IMG/VR virus record: IMGVR_UViG_2711768012_000020 | Reading direction: 5' to 3' (one strand) | DNA length: 36,971 nucleotides | Source: a virus | Taxonomy: Duplodnaviria > Heunggongvirae > Uroviricota > Caudoviricetes | Shown here: positions 1 to 31,603 of the stretch, one piece after another | Position numbering within the stretch: the first letter of the stretch is position 1 | Layout of the letters: the number at the start of each line of letters is the position of its first letter | Position numbers and translations under genes: made by a program | Notes under the pieces: model-generated | The model's input: only the letters and a program-made list of their open reading frames with translations | Told to the model about the DNA's origin: nothing | Database searches by the model: none

Positions 1-573
1 ATGTTTTGCGAAGAAAAAGTAGCTCAAATGGCTGCATACCTACTTCTTAAGCGAGGTGGGCGCATGGCATATCTGAAATTGATGAAGCTGCTCTATCTGT
101 CTAACCGCAAGTCGATTTTGAAGCATGGCAGGATGATCGGCGAAGATAGCCTTTACTCTATGAAATTTGGTCCAGTCATGTCGAATACGCTGAACTTGAT
201 TCGTGGTAAGGCTGAAGGTATTGGTGACTACTGGTACAACCTGATAGAGACGAACGGGCATGATGTGTTGTTGCGTTCAGATCCGAGGGAAATGGATGCA
301 GACGAGGTCTTTGATGAGTTGAGCCGTGCAGATATCCGGATTTTAGATGAAATCTATTCTCTGTATGGGCATATGAACCGATTTGATCTCGCAAACATGA
401 CGCATTTAGAAAGCGTTTGTCCAGAGTGGCACAATCCTGGCAATTCTCGTAAGCCTATAGACCTGAAAGAAATGCTGATCAGTGAGGGTAAAAGCGAGGA
501 TGAGGCTAATCGTATAATTGGCAAAATGGAAGAATCTCAGAAACTTAAGGAATTTTCTTTGCAATTATCATGA
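1..573 (+). CDS. Panacea (DUF4065)-domain protein, putative PanA-like antitoxin; 5' end may be cut by the window edge
   Basis: 190-aa ORF from nt 1; N-terminal pattern AYLLLKRG..MAYLKLMKLLYLSNRKSIL...YSMKFGPVMSNTLNLIRGK matches the conserved core of Panacea/GepA/SocA-like proteins as I recall it; stop overlaps the next ORF start (ATGA at 570-573). Confidence 0.55.
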   Translation: MFCEEKVAQMAAYLLLKRGGRMAYLKLMKLLYLSNRKSILKHGRMIGEDSLYSMKFGPVMSNTLNLIRGKAEGIGDYWYNLIETNGHDVLLRSDPREMDADEVFDELSRADIRILDEIYSLYGHMNRFDLANMTHLESVCPEWHNPGNSRKPIDLKEMLISEGKSEDEANRIIGKMEESQKLKEFSLQLS

Positions 574-989
574 CGGATTATCAGCCATACAGGAAAGGAA
601 CTGTGCTTGCCCCAACTGGGCCATGCAATCATCTTCATGTGATTTGTAATGATCCTGTTTATTACCCCGTTAACGATTGTTATTGTGTTTTAGTTGTTAA
701 TATTTCTAGTATCAAGGATGGTGTCCCCCACGATCCGTCTTGCGTCTTGAATTCTGGTGATCATCGCTTTATCAAGCATCCAAGTTATGTTGTTTACGCT
801 GAAGCTATAATTTGGCGAGTGGATAACATGGTTAGAAAGCAGCGATCGGGTGAGATTTCCGTTCATGATGATATGCCAGAAGCTACATTCAATAGAATTC
901 TGGACGGTTTTGATATATCTGATGAAGTTACGCCAAAGAACCTTAAATTTAAAAATAAATATTGCGTATCATCTATTGATGATGAGTAA
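570..989 (+). CDS. Hypothetical 139-aa protein, candidate toxin/effector partner of the upstream Panacea-like gene
   Basis: ORF with a 4-nt ATGA overlap to the upstream gene (translational coupling); AT-rich relative to neighbours; Cys/His-rich N-terminal half; no family recognised. Confidence 0.45.
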   Translation: MTDYQPYRKGTVLAPTGPCNHLHVICNDPVYYPVNDCYCVLVVNISSIKDGVPHDPSCVLNSGDHRFIKHPSYVVYAEAIIWRVDNMVRKQRSGEISVHDDMPEATFNRILDGFDISDEVTPKNLKFKNKYCVSSIDDE

Positions 990-1028
990 ACAACAGGAAT
1001 TGTTTCGGTATAGCTTCTGGAGTTTTCT

Positions 1029-1202
1029 ATGGAAGATCAAAAAGCAACCAAGCCACAGGTTAAGTTCGACACAATGAAAGCATTCGCAGGTATGGGTGCT
1101 GCTGTTGAAGTTCTGATGAAGGCTGCTCCTAATGCGTTCACTCACGCTACTGTCTCTGGTAAAGAGCAGCAGGGTAAGCTTCGTCGTCGCAAAGCAGCAT
1201 GA
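1029..1202 (+). CDS. Small hypothetical protein (57 aa)
   Basis: ATG at 1029 preceded by GGAG at 1019-1022; ends immediately before an intrinsic terminator; below the 60-aa cutoff of the ORF track; function unknown. Confidence 0.3.
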   Translation: MEDQKATKPQVKFDTMKAFAGMGAAVEVLMKAAPNAFTHATVSGKEQQGKLRRRKAA

Positions 1203-1221
1203 TCATAGCTGGTGCTTTTTG

Positions 1222-1248
1222 AAAACCCGCCTTTAGGCGGGTTTTTTC
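1222..1248. terminator. Bidirectional rho-independent terminator between convergent genes
   Basis: aaaacccgcc-ttta-ggcgggtttttt: GC stem flanked by an A-run and a T-run, between + genes ending at 1202 and a - gene ending at 1250. Confidence 0.6.
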
Positions 1249-1249
1249 T

Positions 1250-1531
1250 TTAGTGATGTTCTTTGCCCTTCTGTTTGCCTGTTCTGACCTGTTCCCACTC
1301 GATACGTCCTTCTTCTCGTCTTTTGTCTATGTATTCCGCAAGATCCTGAATATTGATGCAACGTTTTGCTTTTTGTGATGTACCGATGCGATATGTAGGT
1401 ACAGGCAACTTACAAGCGTTTGCTTTTGCTTCTGCTGTGGCTGGACTCATACCAAAGTATTTTTGACTAACTGCTGAGAGTTCAATGTTTGGGGTATTGA
1501 ATTCAGCCATCAGTAAAAACAAGGTATTCAT
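1250..1531 (-). CDS. Excisionase-like / PrtN-family small DNA-binding protein
   Basis: 93-aa ORF; GGAG 7 nt upstream of the ATG at 1531; the motif IGTSQKAKRCINIQDLAEYIDKRR resembles winged-helix excisionase/pyocin-activator-type regulators; family call from memory. Confidence 0.5.
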   Translation of the reverse strand: MNTLFLLMAEFNTPNIELSAVSQKYFGMSPATAEAKANACKLPVPTYRIGTSQKAKRCINIQDLAEYIDKRREEGRIEWEQVRTGKQKGKEHH

Positions 1532-1567
1532 ATCATTTCTCCATCATAACCGGCTGCACCCGGTGAG

Positions 1568-2362
1568 TTACTTATTCATTTCAATAATATTATTTTCTAT
1601 CATTGATTTATTTAAAACCAAAGAAGGAGCAAGATGGTTGTCTATTTTAAACAATGCATAACTTTTAAACTGTTGGTGATATCCGTAACTAATAAGGATG
1701 CTAGAAAAATCTCTTAATTCATCTTCTTTTAAAAAATTAAAATGAAATGGGTTGTCACCATTTATGAACAATGAAACATCTATTATGCAGTATTTCTCTC
1801 CGTTGTCATTTGCATAGAAAAAAATATAAGACATTCTGTTTGTTAAGACAATGCCATTAAATTTTCTTATGTCTGTAGCTATTTTGTTTTCCATGTTTGG
1901 TGCTACATATTTATTTTCAGAAATACATTTAATTTCATCTCCAGATGTCGTGATTATATAAAAATGAAACTTATCAGAAATATCTAACTTAACTACGCCA
2001 TCATTATTGTAAAGGCTGCTAAATTTTGGTGGTTCAACTTTTAAAGAATCATAGTTCTTTAAAAGAAGAGGGGAGTCAAATTTAATAACTTGTAGTATCC
2101 CTTTACCTTCAACCTCCATATTGATTGAAGATATAGCAATTGCATTATCTCTTTTATTATTCAGGATTATGGTTGATATATGCATGTCATATATTCTACT
2201 TGCATTTGCTGAATACGACACTGTCACCTTTTTTGATATTTTTTGCACGCCAAAATATATAGTGAAGGCAGCGGCAAGAATAGATAAGAATTTAATGTCA
2301 AATAAGGACCATAGCCACATTAGTTGCTCAATTGCTTCAGAGTTAATCATTTGCTTTACCAT
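1568..2362 (-). CDS. AT-rich membrane-anchored protein of unknown function (candidate superinfection-exclusion or abortive-infection moron)
   Basis: Long ORF (track 1568-2401; start choice among ATGs at 2401/2362/2350 uncertain); N-terminal hydrophobic helix LMWLWSLFDIKFLSILAAAFTIYFGV; Asn/Lys/Ile-rich composition, visibly more AT-rich than flanking phage genes. Confidence 0.5.
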   Translation of the reverse strand: MVKQMINSEAIEQLMWLWSLFDIKFLSILAAAFTIYFGVQKISKKVTVSYSANASRIYDMHISTIILNNKRDNAIAISSINMEVEGKGILQVIKFDSPLLLKNYDSLKVEPPKFSSLYNNDGVVKLDISDKFHFYIITTSGDEIKCISENKYVAPNMENKIATDIRKFNGIVLTNRMSYIFFYANDNGEKYCIIDVSLFINGDNPFHFNFLKEDELRDFSSILISYGYHQQFKSYALFKIDNHLAPSLVLNKSMIENNIIEMNK

Positions 2363-2538
2363 TATCGCTGTAATACAACACATGTGTGTATATATACGCA
2401 ATGCAATTATTTTGCAAGTGCTTCATTTACTATCAATAGCTACGTCACGTTATTGTTTAATGGTTCTTTATAGGGGCGGCAATAGTTAAAATTATCGCTT
2501 CCGTAAATGCCCCCGCAGGGGCATTTGCAGTAATGAAA

Positions 2539-3363
2539 TCAGGCGGTGAAAGTACCAATAAAGGTTTCTACTTTGCTGTCTTTGAATTTCTCAACAAGCA
2601 GATCACGAAATTCGTTAGCCATTTCTTCCTGTACCGCTTCCAGCTGAATAATGCGCAGAACCAGTACAGGACGATCGCCAGTGATAATGCTGAGGCGTAA
2701 TTTAAACGGACGTTCTTTCAGACCTTCAAACGGAACGCATTTAAATTCAAATGCCACTGGCATAATGTCTTTGGTCTTCGCTTCGACAGACTCCATCAGG
2801 GAGCGTTTGCCGCTGAAGTCATTATCTTCAAAATCAGCGGTCTGGTTCGCTTCAATTGTGATTTTACGGATCGCCGCAGCCGCTTTGGTTGCCTGAATGG
2901 CGTCACCATTAGCATCAAAGCCCACAAGGTAGTCGGCCCAGTCTTCAATCCATTCTGCCAGTGACTTCTGGGAGTTACGCTCGCCATTAACAGACAACAG
3001 AGCAGAGAACGGAGCTGTCTTTTTCAGTTTGAGAGTGGCGGTGTTATCTGCGTGACCTGGTTCATCAATAGTACCCAGGTTAAGAACACTGACGGCACGC
3101 ATATTATCAGCATCGATAAAGCAGCGGGTGCCTTCATCTGCAAGATCTTTAGAATAACGAGTAAAGTCATCGATGCTGGCAGTGGAAAGCGCACCACGGA
3201 AACGGAAACGATTTAAATTTAATTTTTCCAGATCATGAATGCGGAAATTCTCAGGCAATGCCACAGCATCGGCACCAATCTTACTGATAATTTCATTAAC
3301 ACCCTGAGCAGAAATAAGGGCATGGATTTGATTAATTGCGGTTGCGTCTAAGTTCTGAGACAT
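2539..3363 (-). CDS. Conserved prophage early-left protein (resembles the YfdQ/DUF2303 type), function unknown
   Basis: 274-aa ORF with RBS GTGAGGA 6 nt upstream of the ATG; typical E. coli-like codon usage; family assignment is a recollection, not a computed match. Confidence 0.55.
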
Positions 3364-3428
3364 AATAAGTCCTCACTATATAAAGATATTCAGTGATGAG
3401 ATAAATAATCGGTTAATTAAGAACGATA

Positions 3429-3791
3429 TTAATGACCTGCTGCGCGGAGTTTTCCGTCAGGTTCACCGGCAAGAGTCAGTAATTGTCCCTGGTCTTCCTG
3501 CAGAATAGTCAGGCGACCACCGCGATTGACATACATCGGCGTTTCGGTGGTGTCTTCTTCGGAAATTTTCCCGCGGTTAGTCGGGCGAACATATGAGAGT
3601 TTGTGTTTGATTTTCACACGGTTCTCATCAAATGGTTCGATTTCCAGGTTGAGTGAGACCTTACCTTTGGTTTTCGTGTTCATCACACCGGAAGCGACTT
3701 CACTGAGAACTGCGCCGATTTTGGTTTCAAATACGCCGCCGTCCAGCTCCCCAATAAATGCCTGCACATCAGTACTGCGTTCGCTAGCCAT
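3429..3791 (-). CDS. Hypothetical early-left protein (120 aa)
   Basis: ATG at 3791 preceded by AGGAGC; the track ORF extends to 3977 but that N-terminal extension is Arg/Cys/His-rich junk with no RBS. Confidence 0.5.
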   Translation of the reverse strand: MASERSTDVQAFIGELDGGVFETKIGAVLSEVASGVMNTKTKGKVSLNLEIEPFDENRVKIKHKLSYVRPTNRGKISEEDTTETPMYVNRGGRLTILQEDQGQLLTLAGEPDGKLRAAGH

Positions 3792-4443
3792 TTTGCTGCT
3801 CCTAATCATATCGACCCTGCAAGGTCGGTTGGTTTCTCCACAAAACAGAGAAGAACACCTGCGGTGGCAGCCGCCCGGATGGATTTGGTTATGAGCCCGT
3901 CGTCCGGTGATGCTCTTCTCTGTTTTGTAAAAAGAGCGGTACCAGCCGGAAGCAAGTGTACAAACTGGTACCGCCAAAGCAGTGGCTGTTGTGGTGACCG
4001 GTGCTGATCTCCGGCTTGCGGTTATTTCAGACTCTCACGGGCGTTTAATTGCCCCGCCGAACAGCTCTTTTCCGCATTAGCTGCAATGTCTTTCGCGCAT
4101 CAGCCTGCGCATTCACCACAACGCTGAGAGCACTTAGCCAGTTACGGCACCACACTTTGTCGCGGTTCCATAAATGTCCTCATCGTTGCACCCTGGTCTC
4201 TTCCCAGGCGTCAAACCGAATCGCCACGCTGGTTAGGCGTCTTATCAGCATCATCATTGACTTGCACATTCCGGCTACCTGGTTTGTTTGCCCGAGCAAG
4301 GAGTGGATTGTCCCCTTTAACGTCCCCAGACCGCTAACGACGCATGTGCCATACGCCGTGTTACAACCAAATTTTGTTTAATCTTGCCTGTGCTGTGTTT
4401 CTTTTAGATACATTATGTATCCCAAAGGTACATTGTCAAGTAT

Positions 4444-4466
4444 AAAAAAACCTGCCGAAGCAGGTT
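4444..4466 (-). terminator. Intrinsic terminator downstream of the cI-like repressor gene
   Basis: On the minus strand: cctgcttcggcagg hairpin followed by TTTTTTT, directly after the repressor stop at 4478. Confidence 0.5.
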
Positions 4467-4477
4467 ATAAATATTGA

Positions 4478-5152
4478 TTAGGCCTTTATTATGTATCTTC
4501 TTGGTTTTCCTGAGAAAATCACTGTACCAATTATAGAGCAATTACCGTTAATCTTAATGTAAGGCTCAGGCCAGTTTGGGTTTAATGCTTTGAGATAACG
4601 CTGTGTTCCATCTTCTATCAACCGCTTGAAGGTGGTTTCGCCTGTATCGTGCATCAATGCAATAACGTCGTCACCGTGGCAGGCAGGGACTTCAGGATCA
4701 ACAAAAATCATGTCTCCCGGGCGGTACTCATCAATCATTGAATCACCAATCACCCGCAAGATATAAGTCATTTCGCCACAGGGTACAGGGCAGGGATAAG
4801 TTTCTGCTGTGCTCAAATCAACCTCAGAATAGCCAACTTCTTTCCATGCTCCGGCCTGTACCCATGATATGACAGGGACTAACGTTATTTGTTTGTTAGT
4901 GATTGAAACGTCAGGTTTTTTTGTGATGTTCGTTGTCTGGTGTTCTTGATCAAGCCATCCGACAGGCAGGTCGAAACATTTTTCGATGTGCCGTGCCATG
5001 CTGTCACCGATATTTTTAGTTGCACCATCTCCCATAAACCTGCTGGTCTGGGTTGGCTCGCGATCAATCATGGTGGCAAAGGAAGAATTCCCGCCAACAC
5101 CATCTCTCAGTTTTCTGGCGTTAGACCGCCGGATGTCATGGACTGTTTTCAT
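4478..5152 (-). CDS. cI: CI-type prophage repressor (HTH plus LexA-like S24 peptidase domain)
   Basis: 224 aa; N-terminal HTH region; C-terminal GDSM serine motif and downstream Lys as in LexA/CI autocleaving repressors; divergent from the cro-like gene across an operator region. Confidence 0.85.
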   Translation of the reverse strand: MKTVHDIRRSNARKLRDGVGGNSSFATMIDREPTQTSRFMGDGATKNIGDSMARHIEKCFDLPVGWLDQEHQTTNITKKPDVSITNKQITLVPVISWVQAGAWKEVGYSEVDLSTAETYPCPVPCGEMTYILRVIGDSMIDEYRPGDMIFVDPEVPACHGDDVIALMHDTGETTFKRLIEDGTQRYLKALNPNWPEPYIKINGNCSIIGTVIFSGKPRRYIIKA

Positions 5153-5242
5153 AAAGAAATTAAAACCTTTGTACCGATAAGGTACAAGTATCTTGAAGGT
5201 TCATCTCAATCATGTAATATGTATACCGGAGGTACATATTGT
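5153..5242. promoter_or_regulatory. Divergent immunity-region promoter/operator region (OR-like)
   Basis: Palindrome TTGTACC-gataa-GGTACAA at 5168-5186 and a second GGTAC-containing imperfect palindrome at about 5222-5240, just upstream of the cro-like ATG; lies between divergent cI and cro-like genes. Confidence 0.55.
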
Positions 5243-5443
5243 ATGAAAGCGTATTGGGACTCTTTAACCAAAGAACAGCAGGGTGAGTTGGCCGGAAAAG
5301 TTGGCTCAACACCAGGCTACTTACGGCTGGTTTTCAATGGTTATAAAAAAGCCAGTTTTGTGCTGGCTAAAAAACTTGAGCAATGCACGTCAGGTGCAAT
5401 TACGAAATCTGACTTAAGACCGGATATCTATCCGAAAGATTAA
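5243..5443 (+). CDS. Cro-like small HTH regulator
   Basis: 66 aa; GGAGG RBS upstream of the ATG at 5243; divergent from cI; HTH-like motif TKEQQGELAGKVGSTPGYLRLVFNG. Confidence 0.7.
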   Translation: MKAYWDSLTKEQQGELAGKVGSTPGYLRLVFNGYKKASFVLAKKLEQCTSGAITKSDLRPDIYPKD

Positions 5444-5486
5444 CAGAACACCTTCAATTTTTAACCACAGAACGATGAGGCTAACC

Positions 5487-6038
5487 GTGGGTAAGCATCA
5501 CTGGAAAGTAGAAAAACAGCCTGAGTGGTACGTGAAAGCTGTCAGAAAAACTATCGCGGCGTTGCCGGGGGGTTACGCTGAAGCTGCTGAGTGGCTGGAT
5601 GTAACAGAGAACGCTTTATTCAACCGCCTTCGTGCAGATGGCGATCAGATTTTCCCGCTGGGATGGGCAATGATTTTACAGCGCGCGGCTGGCACTCACT
5701 ACATTGCGGATGCTGTCGCACAGTCTGCTGGTGGGGTGTTTGTATCGCTTCCTGAAATTGAGGAAGTAGAGAACGCCGATATAAACCAGCGCCTGCTGGA
5801 AGTCATCGAACAGATCGGGAGTTACTCAAAGCAGATTCGTTCGGCAATCGAAGATGGGGTAGTGGAGCCACACGAGCAGACAGCAATTAATGATGAGTTG
5901 TATCTGTCAATTTCGAAGCTCCAGGAGCATGCAGCACTGGTCTACAAAATCTTTTGCGCTCCAGAAAAGAGTGACGCCCGCGAGTGTGCAGCTCCGGGCG
6001 TCGTGGCGTTTTGTGTCTGTGGAGAAACTAACGCATGA
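5487..6038 (+). CDS. CII-like early regulatory protein (tentative)
   Basis: ORF directly downstream of cro; probable GTG start at 5487 with GAGG 6 nt upstream (track shows 5475); position is consistent with cII-type genes; family not confirmed. Confidence 0.4.
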   Translation: MGKHHWKVEKQPEWYVKAVRKTIAALPGGYAEAAEWLDVTENALFNRLRADGDQIFPLGWAMILQRAAGTHYIADAVAQSAGGVFVSLPEIEEVENADINQRLLEVIEQIGSYSKQIRSAIEDGVVEPHEQTAINDELYLSISKLQEHAALVYKIFCAPEKSDARECAAPGVVAFCVCGETNA

Positions 6039-7100: not shown

Positions 7101-7915
7101 GTATGGAGCTGATGGTTAAAGCGATGAAAATTCGAGTGGGTAATCCATTGCGAAAACTGGTTCTGATCAAGCTGGCTGATAATGCCAGCGATCAGGGTGA
7201 GTGCTGGCCCAGCTACCAGCATATTGCTGACCAGTGCGAAATTAGCAAACGTTCTGTGATGAATCATATTGCGGCCCTTTGTGAGTCCGGGCTGGTAAAA
7301 AAAGTCACCCGGAAAGGTGAAAAAGGTAACTCAAGTAATATCTATCTCCTTCATCTGGATGGTGCAGGAGATTCACTAGGGGGTAGTGCAAATAATTCAC
7401 TATCTGGTGCAGCAAATTCACCAGGTAGTGCAGGAGTTGCACCAGGGGGTAGTGCAGGAGATTCACCCAGAACCAGTCACTCTTTTGAACCAGTCAAAGA
7501 ACCAGTCAATGAACCAATAGCTGTTGGTGCATCAGTTGATGAGTCCGTGCGAGTTCGTTCAAACCGACCGGAATACTCTCCGGAGTTTGAGCAGGCATGG
7601 CTGGCATATCCCAAACGTGCTGGTGGCAATTCAAAATCTGCAGCCTTCAAAGCCTGGAAAGCCCGTTTGAATGAGGGAGTAAACCCCGAAACCATGCTGG
7701 AAGGTGTGAAACGCTACGCGGGATGGGTATCTGCGATGGGTAACAGCGGCACACAATTTGTGAAACAGGCTGTCACGTTCTTTGGTCCGGATCGTCATTT
7801 CGAAGAATTCTGGGAAGTTCCTGCGGTATCTGCAGCCAGACGCGAGGACCCGTACTTCAAAGCCAGTTACGACAACGTGGACTACAGCCAGATCCCGGCA
7901 GGATTCAGGGGGTGA
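7097..7915 (+). CDS. Replication initiator (O-like; N-terminal HTH, Gly/Ser linker carrying ori iterons)
   Basis: 272 aa; N-terminal winged-helix-like region (LVLIKLADNASDQGECWPSYQHIADQCEISKRSVMNHIAALCESGLV); direct DNA repeats inside the coding sequence, as for the lambda origin inside O. Confidence 0.6.
   Translation: MSMELMVKAMKIRVGNPLRKLVLIKLADNASDQGECWPSYQHIADQCEISKRSVMNHIAALCESGLVKKVTRKGEKGNSSNIYLLHLDGAGDSLGGSANNSLSGAANSPGSAGVAPGGSAGDSPRTSHSFEPVKEPVNEPIAVGASVDESVRVRSNRPEYSPEFEQAWLAYPKRAGGNSKSAAFKAWKARLNEGVNPETMLEGVKRYAGWVSAMGNSGTQFVKQAVTFFGPDRHFEEFWEVPAVSAARREDPYFKASYDNVDYSQIPAGFRG
7358..7520. repeat. Putative replication origin: iteron arrays inside the initiator gene
   Basis: About five copies of GGT(A)GTGCAGGAGATTCAC-like units at roughly 21-bp spacing (about 7361-7468), followed by three tandem GAACCAGTCA decamers plus a fourth degenerate copy (about 7472-7520). 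Confidence 0.55.
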
Positions 7916-7917
7916 TC

Positions 7918-8406
7918 ATGAGTCTTTTGAATGAAGTTCAGAAATTCATTGAAGCCCATCCGGGGTGTACTTCCGGAGACATTGCGGATGCTTTTGCAGG
8001 TTACTCACGGCAGCGCGTTCTGCAGTCAGCAAGCAAGTTACGTCAGAGTGGGCGTGTGGCTCACCGTTATGAAGGAGATACACGCAGACATTTCCCACGC
8101 CTGACTGAGAGAGCGCAGGAGCCGGAACCACAACCAGTTCGTGAAACCAGACCTGTGCGCAATTTCTATGTCGGCACTAACGATCCCCGGGTGATTTTGT
8201 GCCTGACCCGCCAGGCGGAAGAACTGGAGTCCAGGGGCTTATACCGTCGTGCTGCAACGGTGTGGATGGCGGCATTCCGTGAAAGCCACTCCCAGCCAGA
8301 ACGAAACAATTTTCTGGCGCGTCGTGAGCGGTGCTTACGGAAAAGCAGCAAGCGCGCTGCATCGGGTGAAGAGTGGTATCTGTCAGGGAATTACGTGGGG
8401 GCTTAA
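7918..8406 (+). CDS. Winged-helix DNA-binding protein, possibly PerC-like regulator
   Basis: 163 aa; ATG at 7918 three nt after the upstream stop; N-terminal winged-helix-like region, basic C-terminus; family tentative. Confidence 0.5.
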   Translation: MSLLNEVQKFIEAHPGCTSGDIADAFAGYSRQRVLQSASKLRQSGRVAHRYEGDTRRHFPRLTERAQEPEPQPVRETRPVRNFYVGTNDPRVILCLTRQAEELESRGLYRRAATVWMAAFRESHSQPERNNFLARRERCLRKSSKRAASGEEWYLSGNYVGA

Positions 8407-30075: not shown

Positions 30076-30855
30076 ATGCAGGATATTCCACAGGAAACAC
30101 ATCATGAGACGACACGCCTCACTCAGTCAGCCCAGGTGGTGCTCTGGGAAATCGATCTGACAGAGGTCGGTGGAGAACGTTATTTTTTCTGTAATGAGCA
30201 GAACGAAAAAGGTGAGCCGGTCACCTGGCAGGGGCGACAGTATCAGGCGTATCCCATTCAGGGGACGGGATTTGAACTGAACGGCAAGGGCAGTGCTGCC
30301 CGNNNNNNNNNNNNNNNNNNNNNNNNNNNNNNNNNNNNNNNNNNNNNNNNNNNNNNNNNNNNNNNNNNNNNNNNNNNNNNNNNNNNNNNNNNNNNNNNNN
30401 NNNNNNNNNNNNNNNNNNNNNNNNNNNNNNNNNNNNNNNNNNNNNNNNNNNNNNNNNNNNNNNNNNNNNNNNNNNNNNNNNNNNNNNNNNNNNNNNNNNN
30501 NNNNNNNNNNNNNNNNNNNNNNNNNNNNNNNNNNNNNNNNNNNNNNNNNNNNNNNNNNNNNNNNNNNNNNNNNNNNNNNNNNNNNNNNNNNNNNNNNNNN
30601 NNNNNNNNNNNNNNNNNNNNNNNNNNNNNNNNNNNNNNNGTTTTTCCGGGGCGCATCATGCTGGCCAACACCTGCACCTGGACCTATCGCGGTGACGAGT
30701 GCGGTTATAGCGGTCCGGCTGTCGCGGATGAATATGATCAGCCGACGTCCGATATCACGAAGGATAAATGCAGCAAATGCCTGAGCGGCTGTAAGTTTCG
30801 CAATAACGTCGGCAACTTTGGCGGCTTCCTTTCCATTAACAAACTTTCGCAGTAA
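30076..30855 (+). CDS. L: Minor tail protein L (interrupted by an N-run)
   Basis: N-terminal (MQDIPQET...WEIDLTEVGGERYFFCNEQNEKGEPVTWQGRQYQ) and C-terminal (CTWTYRGDECGYSG...CSKCLSGCKFRNNVGNFGGFLSINKLSQ) parts match lambda gpL; the middle is masked by Ns (30303-30639), so frame continuity is unverified. Confidence 0.75.
   Translation: MQDIPQETHHETTRLTQSAQVVLWEIDLTEVGGERYFFCNEQNEKGEPVTWQGRQYQAYPIQGTGFELNGKGSAAXXXXXXXXXXXXXXXXXXXXXXXXXXXXXXXXXXXXXXXXXXXXXXXXXXXXXXXXXXXXXXXXXXXXXXXXXXXXXXXXXXXXXXXXXXXXXXXXXXXXXXXXXXXXXXXXXVFPGRIMLANTCTWTYRGDECGYSGPAVADEYDQPTSDITKDKCSKCLSGCKFRNNVGNFGGFLSINKLSQ
30303..30639. other. Run of 337 N (assembly gap or masked sequence) inside gene L
   Basis: Uninterrupted n characters in the sequence. 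Confidence 0.99.
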
Positions 30856-31603
30856 ATCCCATACAGAGACAGAATCAGCGATTCTGGCGCACGCCCGGCG
30901 ATGTGCGCCAGCGGAGTCGTGCGGCTTCGTGGTGAGAACACCGGAGGGGGAAAGATATTTTCCCTGCGTGAATATCTCCGGTGAGCCGGAGGAGTATTTC
31001 CGGATGTCGCCGGAGGACTGGCTGCGGGCAGAGATGCAGGGTGAGATTGTGGCGCTGGTCCACAGCCACCCCGGTGGTCTGCCCTGGCTGAGTGAGGCCG
31101 ACCGGCGGCTGCAGGTGCAGAGTGATTTGCCGTGGTGGCTGGTCTGCCGGGGGGCGATTCACAAGTTCCGCTGTGTGCCACATCTTACCGGGCGGCGCTT
31201 TGAGCACGGGGTGACGGACTGTTACACGCTGTTCCGGGATGCTTACCATCTGGCGGGGATTGAGATGCCGGATTTTCATCGCGGGGATGACTGGTGGCGT
31301 CACGGTCAGAATCTCTATCTGGATAATCTGGAGGCTACAGGGCTGTATCAGGTGCCGTTGTCAGCGGCGCAGCCGGGCGATGTGCTGCTGTGCTGTTTTG
31401 GTTCATCGGTGCCGAATCATGCCGCCATTTACTGTGGTGACGGCGAGCTGCTGCACCATATTCCTGAACAACTGAGCAAACGAGAGAGGTATACCGACAA
31501 ATGGCAGCGACGCACACACTCCCTCTGGCGTCACCGGGCATGGCACGCATCTGCCTTTACGGGGATTTACAACGATTTGGCCGCCGCATCGACCTTCGAG
31601 TGA
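30818..31603 (+). CDS. K: Tail assembly protein K (JAB/MPN plus NlpC/P60-like)
   Basis: Matches lambda gpK (AILAHARRCAPAESCGFVV...ALVHSHPGG...); start codon uncertain because no ATG is present near the expected start (track uses TTG at 30818, inside the L 3' end). Confidence 0.75.
   Translation: MAASFPLTNFRSKSHTETESAILAHARRCAPAESCGFVVRTPEGERYFPCVNISGEPEEYFRMSPEDWLRAEMQGEIVALVHSHPGGLPWLSEADRRLQVQSDLPWWLVCRGAIHKFRCVPHLTGRRFEHGVTDCYTLFRDAYHLAGIEMPDFHRGDDWWRHGQNLYLDNLEATGLYQVPLSAAQPGDVLLCCFGSSVPNHAAIYCGDGELLHHIPEQLSKRERYTDKWQRRTHSLWRHRAWHASAFTGIYNDLAAASTFE

Follow-up and report, generated by a model that had tools for sequence, protein, structure and literature searches.

An exchangeable AT-rich gene in the early-left arm of a lambda-like Escherichia coli prophage encodes a predicted membrane-anchored protein with a possible anti-phage role

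The window analysed here is the whole 36,971-nucleotide stretch of IMG/VR virus record IMGVR_UViG_2711768012_000020. Judged from its gene content it is a lambda-like siphovirus prophage of Escherichia coli, and its early leftward arm carries an AT-rich gene on the minus strand (Table 1). The open reading frame (ORF) spans 1568..2401 and encodes 277 amino acids (aa) if counted from a TTG codon, while the 783-nt coding sequence (CDS) from the ATG at 2350 gives 260 aa. We take this ATG as the best-supported start because RefSeq holds the 260-aa CDS with 100% DNA identity (WP_047654657.1, "hypothetical protein", E. coli O25b:H4), because the phrog_14996 profile aligns to residues 18-277 of the 277-aa form, and because 10 of 11 homologues start at or beside the same Met (MINxK), with one truncated and two carrying extra residues. 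The upstream extension is probably not translated. The original prediction, which gave an ORF of 265-277 aa, had thus found a real minus-strand gene, and its length is better put at 260 aa.

The GC content of the CDS is 0.290, against a mean of 0.503 for 783-nt windows (standard deviation 0.065; z = -3.3), and the lowest GC anywhere in the window coincides with this gene. The depletion extends to all three codon positions (0.34, 0.26 and 0.26). The strong AT-richness noticed earlier thus holds up in the windowed comparison that had been proposed as a check. The protein is rich in I (12.7%), S (9.6%), N (9.2%), L (8.5%) and K (8.5%), which bears out the Asn/Lys/Ile bias as well. E. coli alleles differ by 4-36 nt and contain no stops, and their ratios of nonsynonymous to synonymous substitution rates (dN/dS, 0.24-0.46) indicate purifying but relaxed selection.

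The gene belongs to a module of ~930 bp (~1564-2494) that also includes an AT-rich leader of ~145 nt. In a megablast search of window positions 1400-2600 against phage records, only the flanks were matched (query 1-164 and 1090-1201). Alignments with the phages PhiR47_1 and mEp460 place sharp homology breaks at ~1563/1564 and ~2494/2495, between near-identical flanks. The left break lies 4 nt past the stop codon, and homology to both phages resumes exactly at the short hairpin upstream of xis; the hairpin at the right junction is kept in PhiR47_1 and has no U-tract. Between the same two junctions PhiR47_1 carries exoVIII-ea22-eaE-HD hydrolase, and mEp460 carries a related block with an exonuclease and ea22-like genes. 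On these alignments, a variable slot lies between xis and yfdQ, and the gene with its leader is one of its alternative contents. The leader contains sigma-70-like hexamers, TTGATA at 2436-2431 and CAAAAT at 2414-2409, separated by 16 nt.

Table 1. Features at the AT-rich gene and its flanks (positions in the window)
Feature	Position	Strand	Basis or remark
CDS of the 260-aa protein, phrog_14996 member	1568..2350	-	stop codon 1568-1570, ATG 2350-2348
In-frame upstream extension to TTG, probably not translated	2351..2401	-	homologue starts; PHROG profile start at residue 18
AT-rich leader travelling with the gene	2351..2494	-	homology break against PhiR47_1 at ~2495
N-terminal hydrophobic helix, predicted membrane anchor, residues ~12-35, WLWSLFDIKFLSILAAAFTIYFGV	2246..2317	-	Kyte-Doolittle; AlphaFold2
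Immunoglobulin (Ig)-like beta-sandwich, residues ~43-141	1928..2224	-	carries the most conserved polar positions
C-terminal alpha/beta domain, residues ~156-260	1571..1885	-	AlphaFold2 model
Excisionase-like (PrtN family) gene, conserved left flank	1250..1531	-	PF11112 3.1e-23; phrog_1300 "excisionase"
yfdQ (DUF2303), conserved right flank	2539..3363	-	PF10065 7.9e-93; RefSeq "YfdQ family protein"
Strong bidirectional intrinsic terminator closing the leftward operon after xis	1221..1246	.	-18.1 kcal/mol, z = -5.3
Short weak hairpin (ACCGG...CCGGU) at the left junction, upstream of xis	1549..1564	-	z = -0.7, no better than shuffles
Conserved 9-bp GC-rich hairpin at the right junction, just downstream of yfdQ	2505..2526	-	-19.5 kcal/mol, z = -2.8

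A survey of 5426 complete E. coli genomes with a 1.2-kb query comprising the gene and its flanks found the gene in 99 (1.8%), while 2756 matched some part of the query. All 99 copies are single, chromosomal and in the matching flank context. The sole disrupted copy is that of strain E89, in which IS1X2 splits the gene (NZ_CP121157.1 4392685-4394243); the other frames examined, in E. coli and in the relatives, are intact. The gene therefore shows two marks of a moron, a deviant composition (GC 0.29 versus 0.50) and presence or absence among related phages.

At the family level, the 260-aa protein matches the profile hidden Markov model of phrog_14996 over its full length (260/260; about 2.3e-178 to 2.9e-178), as do all 72 of the 72 aligned relatives; PHROGs v4 lists the function of this family as unknown. 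An indexed search returned 11 clusters only, which share 40-100% identity and belong to E. coli, Citrobacter and Klebsiella. When 1.84 billion representatives were searched with a profile, 221 proteins were obtained at E <= 1e-3 and 141 at E <= 1e-10; among the 150 matches listed of the 221, most are full-length (~230-280 aa) with the match covering the greater part of the protein, and the remainder are shorter fragments. The named members belong to Providencia, Vibrio (parahaemolyticus, vulnificus, diabolicus, owensii), Marinomonas, Acinetobacter, Pseudomonas, Raoultella and Buttiauxella. The family occurs in several orders of Gammaproteobacteria with one architecture. A single cluster at >90% identity covers Vibrio, Providencia and Marinomonas, which points to recent transfer. 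A genome scan with the alignment of close homologues found one locus.

The original prediction had recognised no known family and had suggested a search for remote homology; beyond phrog_14996 this search likewise left the protein with no relatives in Pfam, NCBIfam, PADLOC or the PDB. With the 260-aa protein, Pfam, NCBIfam and PADLOC gave no credible match, the nearest being a sub-threshold Ig-like hit (PF24498, E 0.013). With the 72 relatives, Pfam gave just two marginal single-member DUF matches, and the additional PHROG hits were two marginal single-member matches, to phrog_30420 and to phrog_937 "hemolysin". Sequence searches of the PDB with the protein and with the family profile gave nothing meaningful. 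No paper citing WP_047654657.1 was found in the literature search, and this accession is also missing from the DefensePredictor supplements searched. HepS (PMC13043305) was considered and set aside, being a HEPN protein unrelated to the 260-aa protein.

The full-length AlphaFold2 (AF2) model has a mean predicted local distance difference test score (pLDDT) of 80 and consists of an N-terminal helix (residues 4-38), a beta-sandwich (43-141) and an alpha/beta domain (156-260). The last of these has a pLDDT of 93 and is thus a confidently modelled domain, with no solved relative. In the fold comparisons, the beta-sandwich resembles binding modules of many kinds, and Foldseek against the viral structures of BFVD returned none at E <= 1e-3. 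The only hydrophobic segment, whose Kyte-Doolittle maximum over 19 residues is 1.68, falls within the AF2 helix, in agreement with the single N-terminal transmembrane (TM) helix first proposed; nearly all 72 family members likewise show a hydrophobic maximum near the N-terminus. Within and beside this helix, F29, T30, Y32, F33 and K37 are invariant among the close homologues, K37 and Y32 belong to the most strongly conserved columns when the 72 members are aligned, and the juxtamembrane stretch 36-47 has the highest conservation (2.2 bits per column). The invariant F29/T30/Y32/F33 and the conserved juxtamembrane stretch suggest that the helix is more than an anchor.

Across the family, the top positions are N65, K37, P94, G194, S111, Y179, N205, D68, C142, K/R67 and D/E101. 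The most conserved polar positions of the sandwich are N65, K/R67, D68, P94, K98, D/E101 and S111, and no nuclease, protease, NTPase or other catalytic signature was recognised among the best-conserved positions. At residue 194 (window ~1769-1771) the E. coli protein has Leu in place of a Gly that is near-invariant in the family (68/72); in the enterobacterial subgroup a turn of the C-terminal domain may differ locally.

The orientation in the membrane was deduced from the charges beside the helix. In 61 of the 72 members, the 15 residues after the helix contain more K/R (mean 2.5) than the N-side, which has at most two, usually none or one, and is usually acidic. According to the positive-inside rule, an established regularity of membrane proteins, these counts place the N-terminus outside, in the periplasm, and the globular part in the cytoplasm. 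The cysteine content fits such a reducing compartment, since the count varies from 0 to 7 across the family and C142 (64/72) has no second Cys beside it in the top conserved columns. We therefore predict a bitopic inner-membrane protein with cytoplasmic globular domains. A cleaved signal peptide or a lipoprotein was rejected, as the N-terminus (MINSEAIEQLMWLWSLFDIKFLSILAAAFTIYFGVQK) is acidic and has no Cys, basic n-region or lipobox.

We then considered where the relatives live, in a qualitative survey of about ten contexts that offers no statistical enrichment. The Pseudomonas relatives (25-26% identity) adjoin the portal gene gpQ of P2-like prophages, and the Providencia relative lies between the portal gpQ/ogr and gpA of a P2-like prophage. 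The gpQ-gpA interval of P2 is the old/tin anti-phage hotspot (Rousset et al. 2022, PMC9122126). In two Pseudomonas prophages of this kind a 455-aa STAND-type NTPase (AAA_16/AAA_22/NB-ARC) with a weak PADLOC PDC-S59 match is encoded 41-49 nt upstream on the same strand (locus L034 8589-9959, locus L035 8584-9951); the NTPase and the family member could form a two-gene system or could be merely adjacent cargo. RnlAB is nearby in one Pseudomonas locus.

The Citrobacter relatives lie ~200 nt upstream of an integrase gene, with only a 68-aa ORF between, and this integrase-proximal segment is common to a P4-like satellite, to CP4-like islands with CbtA/CbeA and to another island. Four different Citrobacter islands with this segment also conserve, ~550 nt upstream of the family member, a further uncharacterised cargo gene, whose 477-aa product is matched by neither Pfam nor PADLOC (loci L006-L009, 6015-7448). 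In other enterobacterial prophages the relative immediately precedes xis-int at the end of the prophage, the same arrangement as in the window, while the Klebsiella and Raoultella relatives occupy lambdoid nin-type early-right regions. In one nin-type setting (loci L029 and L030, 6067-7801), the relative follows, at a distance of 200 nt, a RosmerTA-like pair in which an unknown ORF of 216 aa overlaps an RmrA HTH-peptidase M78 gene (PADLOC 6e-107). Klebsiella prophages that carry a family member also hold, among their head genes, an 86-aa gene with an Acb2/Tad1 hairpin domain (PF24729; loci L002, L003 and L005, 14352-14612), a family of anti-CBASS and anti-Thoeris sponges. The enterobacterial copies all have a GC content of 0.29-0.35 within surroundings of 0.45-0.60; this, together with the discrete module and the patchy presence in E. 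coli (99/5426), bears out the recent horizontal acquisition that had been suggested from composition.

The Vibrio relative is a one-gene cassette of a chromosomal integron (locus L039 8024-8782). It is bracketed by attC-like repeats of 124 nt (7885-8008 and 8779-8902) that are 95% identical, an arrangement found in Vibrio only, and the segment 5000-12000 of this locus contains at least ten attC-like repeats (61-124 nt, TAACAA...GCGTTA ends) at spacings of 467-2682 nt, which mark off cassettes of one gene each. Nearby cassettes encode a dGTPase (2e-66), PDC-S31, PDC-S15 and ParE/Phd; a lambda Ea47-like protein and a PIN_12 protein are also encoded in the array. The Acinetobacter relatives are on small plasmids, one of which carries MazEF. 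A conserved partner gene was sought and rejected, because the upstream genes of ~430-480 aa in Pseudomonas, Acinetobacter and Citrobacter are mutually dissimilar. The one-gene cassette and these mutually unrelated upstream genes indicate that the family works and moves as a single gene.

From these contexts, we consider it about an even chance that the 260-aa protein is a standalone membrane-anchored anti-phage protein of the abortive-infection or exclusion type. The role is plausible from the company that the relatives keep, in the P2 gpQ-gpA hotspot and beside RmrA, dGTPase, PDC-S15/S31, STAND-type, RnlAB and toxin-antitoxin (TA) genes, and a Panacea-domain antitoxin pair ~600 bp from the gene in the window speaks for it as well. 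More tentatively, and with slightly less than even confidence, we propose that phrog_14996 as a whole is a new standalone single-gene anti-phage family, enzyme-free and composed of a conserved TM helix, a cytoplasmic Ig-like sandwich close to the membrane and an alpha/beta domain. Across Gammaproteobacteria such a family would shuttle among prophages of the lambdoid type, the P2 old/tin hotspot, the cargo of satellites and islands, plasmids and integron cassettes of Vibrio. The family had been catalogued with its function uncharacterised, and the 260-aa protein is an accessory membrane protein of prophages and other mobile elements with a candidate defence role.

In mechanistic terms, this single-gene cargo would work alone to protect the lysogen or the mobile element from other phages. 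Its cytoplasmic domains, tethered to the membrane, would sense at the inner membrane face either a phage component or a change induced by infection; self-association of the conserved TM and juxtamembrane segment would follow and damage the membrane, leading to abortive infection. Alternatively, the protein may obstruct the inner-membrane step of genome entry and thereby cause exclusion. Of the two, the predicted cytoplasmic location of the globular part leads us to favour the abortive version.

As a working analogy for this mechanism, we considered the CBASS effector Cap15, in which N-terminal TM helices precede a cytoplasmic beta-barrel and which oligomerises and disrupts the membrane. The shared traits are a TM anchor, a predicted cytoplasmic all-beta module, the lack of a catalytic motif and a conserved juxtamembrane region. 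In contrast to Cap15, however, phrog_14996 moves as a single gene with no cyclase or other signal-generating partner, has an Ig-like sandwich plus an alpha/beta domain instead of a minimal beta-barrel, and gives no PADLOC match to CBASS effectors.

The original prediction had pointed to lambda rexB and sieB and to P22 sieA and sieB, but these serve as functional analogies only, as no match to RexB, SieA or SieB was obtained in Pfam, PHROGs or PADLOC, and comparison with these and similar proteins gave no informative fold match. RexB, the SieB of lambda and P22, P22 SieA, HK97 gp15 and T4 Imm are small prophage-borne inner-membrane accessory proteins of non-essential early regions. The protein studied here is like them in being a prophage cargo membrane protein, with an action on incoming phages that is only proposed; it is unlike them in having one TM helix and ~220 residues of globular sequence, whereas they are polytopic or very small. 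RexB in particular is polytopic, with four TM segments, and is paired with the sensor gene RexA. A RexAB-type system was rejected on the basis of the single hydrophobic segment, the lack of a Rex-family match and the neighbours, which are xis and yfdQ with no RexA-like partner. The SieA, SieB, Imm and gp15 families were rejected because PHROGs gives only the unknown-function phrog_14996, and a receptor-blocking lipoprotein of the Cor/Llp type because the N-terminus has no Cys, basic n-region or lipobox. As to position, the early leftward arm was correctly named, but the slot is the place of ea22/eaE in related phages and not that of rex or sieB, which lie close to cI; the xis-to-recombination/yfdQ interval is what we take to be the equivalent of the lambda "ea" slot.

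Among reported defence cargo, the Providencia and Pseudomonas members resemble the single-gene systems known from the P2 gpQ-gpA interval and from P4 hotspots by residing in the former (PMC9122126), and the Vibrio member resembles the defence cassettes of Vibrio integrons in being an integron cassette itself. Two such anti-phage proteins have a TM segment as their sole recognisable feature, namely Brigantia from a V. cholerae integron cassette (Darracq et al. 2024, 10.1101/2024.07.02.601686) and LDILCD_22380 from V. vulnificus, which is active against T4 (Trigo da Roza et al. 2026, 10.64898/2026.03.17.712381). Either may belong to phrog_14996, with which they were compared by description, although LDILCD_22380, described as "small", may not fit a length of 250 aa.

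Several observations weigh against an anti-phage role. The searches of Pfam, PHROGs and PADLOC revealed no homology to validated defence proteins, and PADLOC v2.0.0 with the protein and its 72 relatives gave no credible match beyond two single-member hits (E 0.0016-0.0099). No relative is encoded in 50,697 deposited phage genomes according to tblastn. The helix is of moderate strength (1.68) and includes the conserved D18 and K20, and the predicted topology has the positive-inside rule as its one basis. The leader contains five promoter-like sites where shuffled sequences give 6.4, and the terminator scan found no intrinsic terminator between the gene and xis, nor one that would insulate the gene from a pL-type operon. 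In addition, the P2 hotspot holds non-defence cargo too, including virulence, partitioning and anti-defence genes (PMC9122126).

The absence of such insulation is what would be seen if the gene were an early-left accessory gene of the "ea" type that serves the lytic programme of its own phage and gives the lysogen no protection. It would then be expressed in pL-type fashion after induction or infection, and its product would interfere with events at the host membrane, such as division, transport or energy state, or would counter a host defence. We regard this as unlikely, even though the gene lies inside the leftward operon, on the strand of yfdP-yfdQ and xis and with no intrinsic terminator on either side, takes the place of the exoVIII-ea22-eaE-HD hydrolase block of related phages, and has relatives in the nin-type early regions of Klebsiella and Raoultella, where those Klebsiella prophages carry an Acb2/Tad1-type anti-defence gene. 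The relatives in Vibrio integron cassettes, on Acinetobacter plasmids and in the cargo of CP4-like islands are found where no lytic programme exists, and the anti-defence proteins described so far are, to our knowledge, mostly small and soluble. Another explanation is a lysogenic-conversion or host-fitness factor unrelated to phages that would act, for example, on the envelope, stress tolerance or host interaction. Prophage and integron cargo is often non-defensive, as the virulence and partition genes of the P2 hotspot illustrate (PMC9122126), the window itself carries the classic conversion gene lom (PF06316), and the sandwich is similar to binding modules of many kinds. Globular domains predicted to be cytoplasmic are nevertheless unsuited to a surface function, the gene is rare and patchy (1.8% of E. 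coli genomes), and the neighbours are repeatedly defence or TA genes, which makes this explanation quite unlikely in our judgement.

The STAND-type NTPase of the two Pseudomonas prophages, 41-49 nt upstream and with its weak PDC-S59 match, suggests a further reading, in which the protein would be the membrane-located effector of a gene pair that has lost its sensor here, leaving the E. coli copy inert or partner-dependent. A STAND/Avs-like two-gene system was rejected, since the adjacency is limited to these two loci, and an orphan effector is improbable: neither the window nor most other contexts has such a partner, the Vibrio copy is a one-gene cassette, the upstream genes in Pseudomonas, Acinetobacter and Citrobacter lack mutual similarity, and the E. 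coli alleles show purifying selection. We give the least credence, amounting to near dismissal, to a decaying or functionless remnant. The one IS1-interrupted copy among 99 and the relaxed constraint (dN/dS up to 0.46) would agree with decay, but the frames are otherwise intact in all E. coli copies and relatives examined, AF2 gives confident models (pLDDT of 80 overall and of 93 for the C-domain) and one architecture is maintained across several gammaproteobacterial orders.

If the protein is indeed a protective, standalone anti-phage factor, it would represent a further defence family, compact (783 bp), free of enzyme domains and tethered to the membrane, that includes a confidently modelled domain lacking a solved relative. 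The exchange among lambdoid early regions, the P2 gpQ-gpA interval, integrase-adjacent island cargo and integron cassettes would mean one shared gene pool, and the gene would bear on the prediction of host range for ~2% of E. coli, including ST131-type O25b:H4 and avian pathogenic E. coli (APEC) O78. If it is not defensive, it still illustrates cleanly how one module replaces another in the "ea" slot next to xis in lambdoid phages.

The gene order leftward from the LexA/S24-type repressor gene (4478-5152, minus strand) is a yfdP-like gene, yfdQ/DUF2303, the AT-rich gene, the PrtN/excisionase-like gene and the terminator. The leftward early-arm location given in the original prediction, between the xis-like gene and yfdQ, and the excisionase-like neighbour, which matches PF11112 and phrog_1300, are thus both confirmed; this xis-like gene is conserved in many E. 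coli phages. The terminator beyond it has a 10-11-bp stem and is the first downstream of the 260-aa gene in the terminator scan. An Rfam scan of window positions 1-6000 found no RNA family. The window also encodes a cII-like protein, Ash, antiterminator Q, a DNA methylase and the lambda-type tail proteins L, K and I, as well as Lom.

Just before the terminator lies a conserved 57-aa ORF (1029-1202; RefSeq WP_000390072.1, also mEp460 gp24). A Panacea/SocA-domain antitoxin gene (1-573, plus strand; PF13274, 1.8e-18) converges on the same terminator and overlaps by 4 nt an ORF of 139 aa (570-989, plus strand; phrog_19071, unknown). These two genes probably form a PanA-PanT-type toxin-antitoxin pair at the prophage end, which adjoins zur in E. 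coli O25b:H4. PhiR47_1 has an annotated PanA/PanT in the corresponding place, with a toxin of different size (182 aa). Elsewhere in the window, the GC content dips to 0.41 at 12001-12800, which takes in the last part of the gene for antiterminator Q and an ORF of 141 aa with no Pfam match (12640-13065, plus strand), and again to 0.41 at 30401-31200, within the tail genes L and K (JAB/NlpC-P60).

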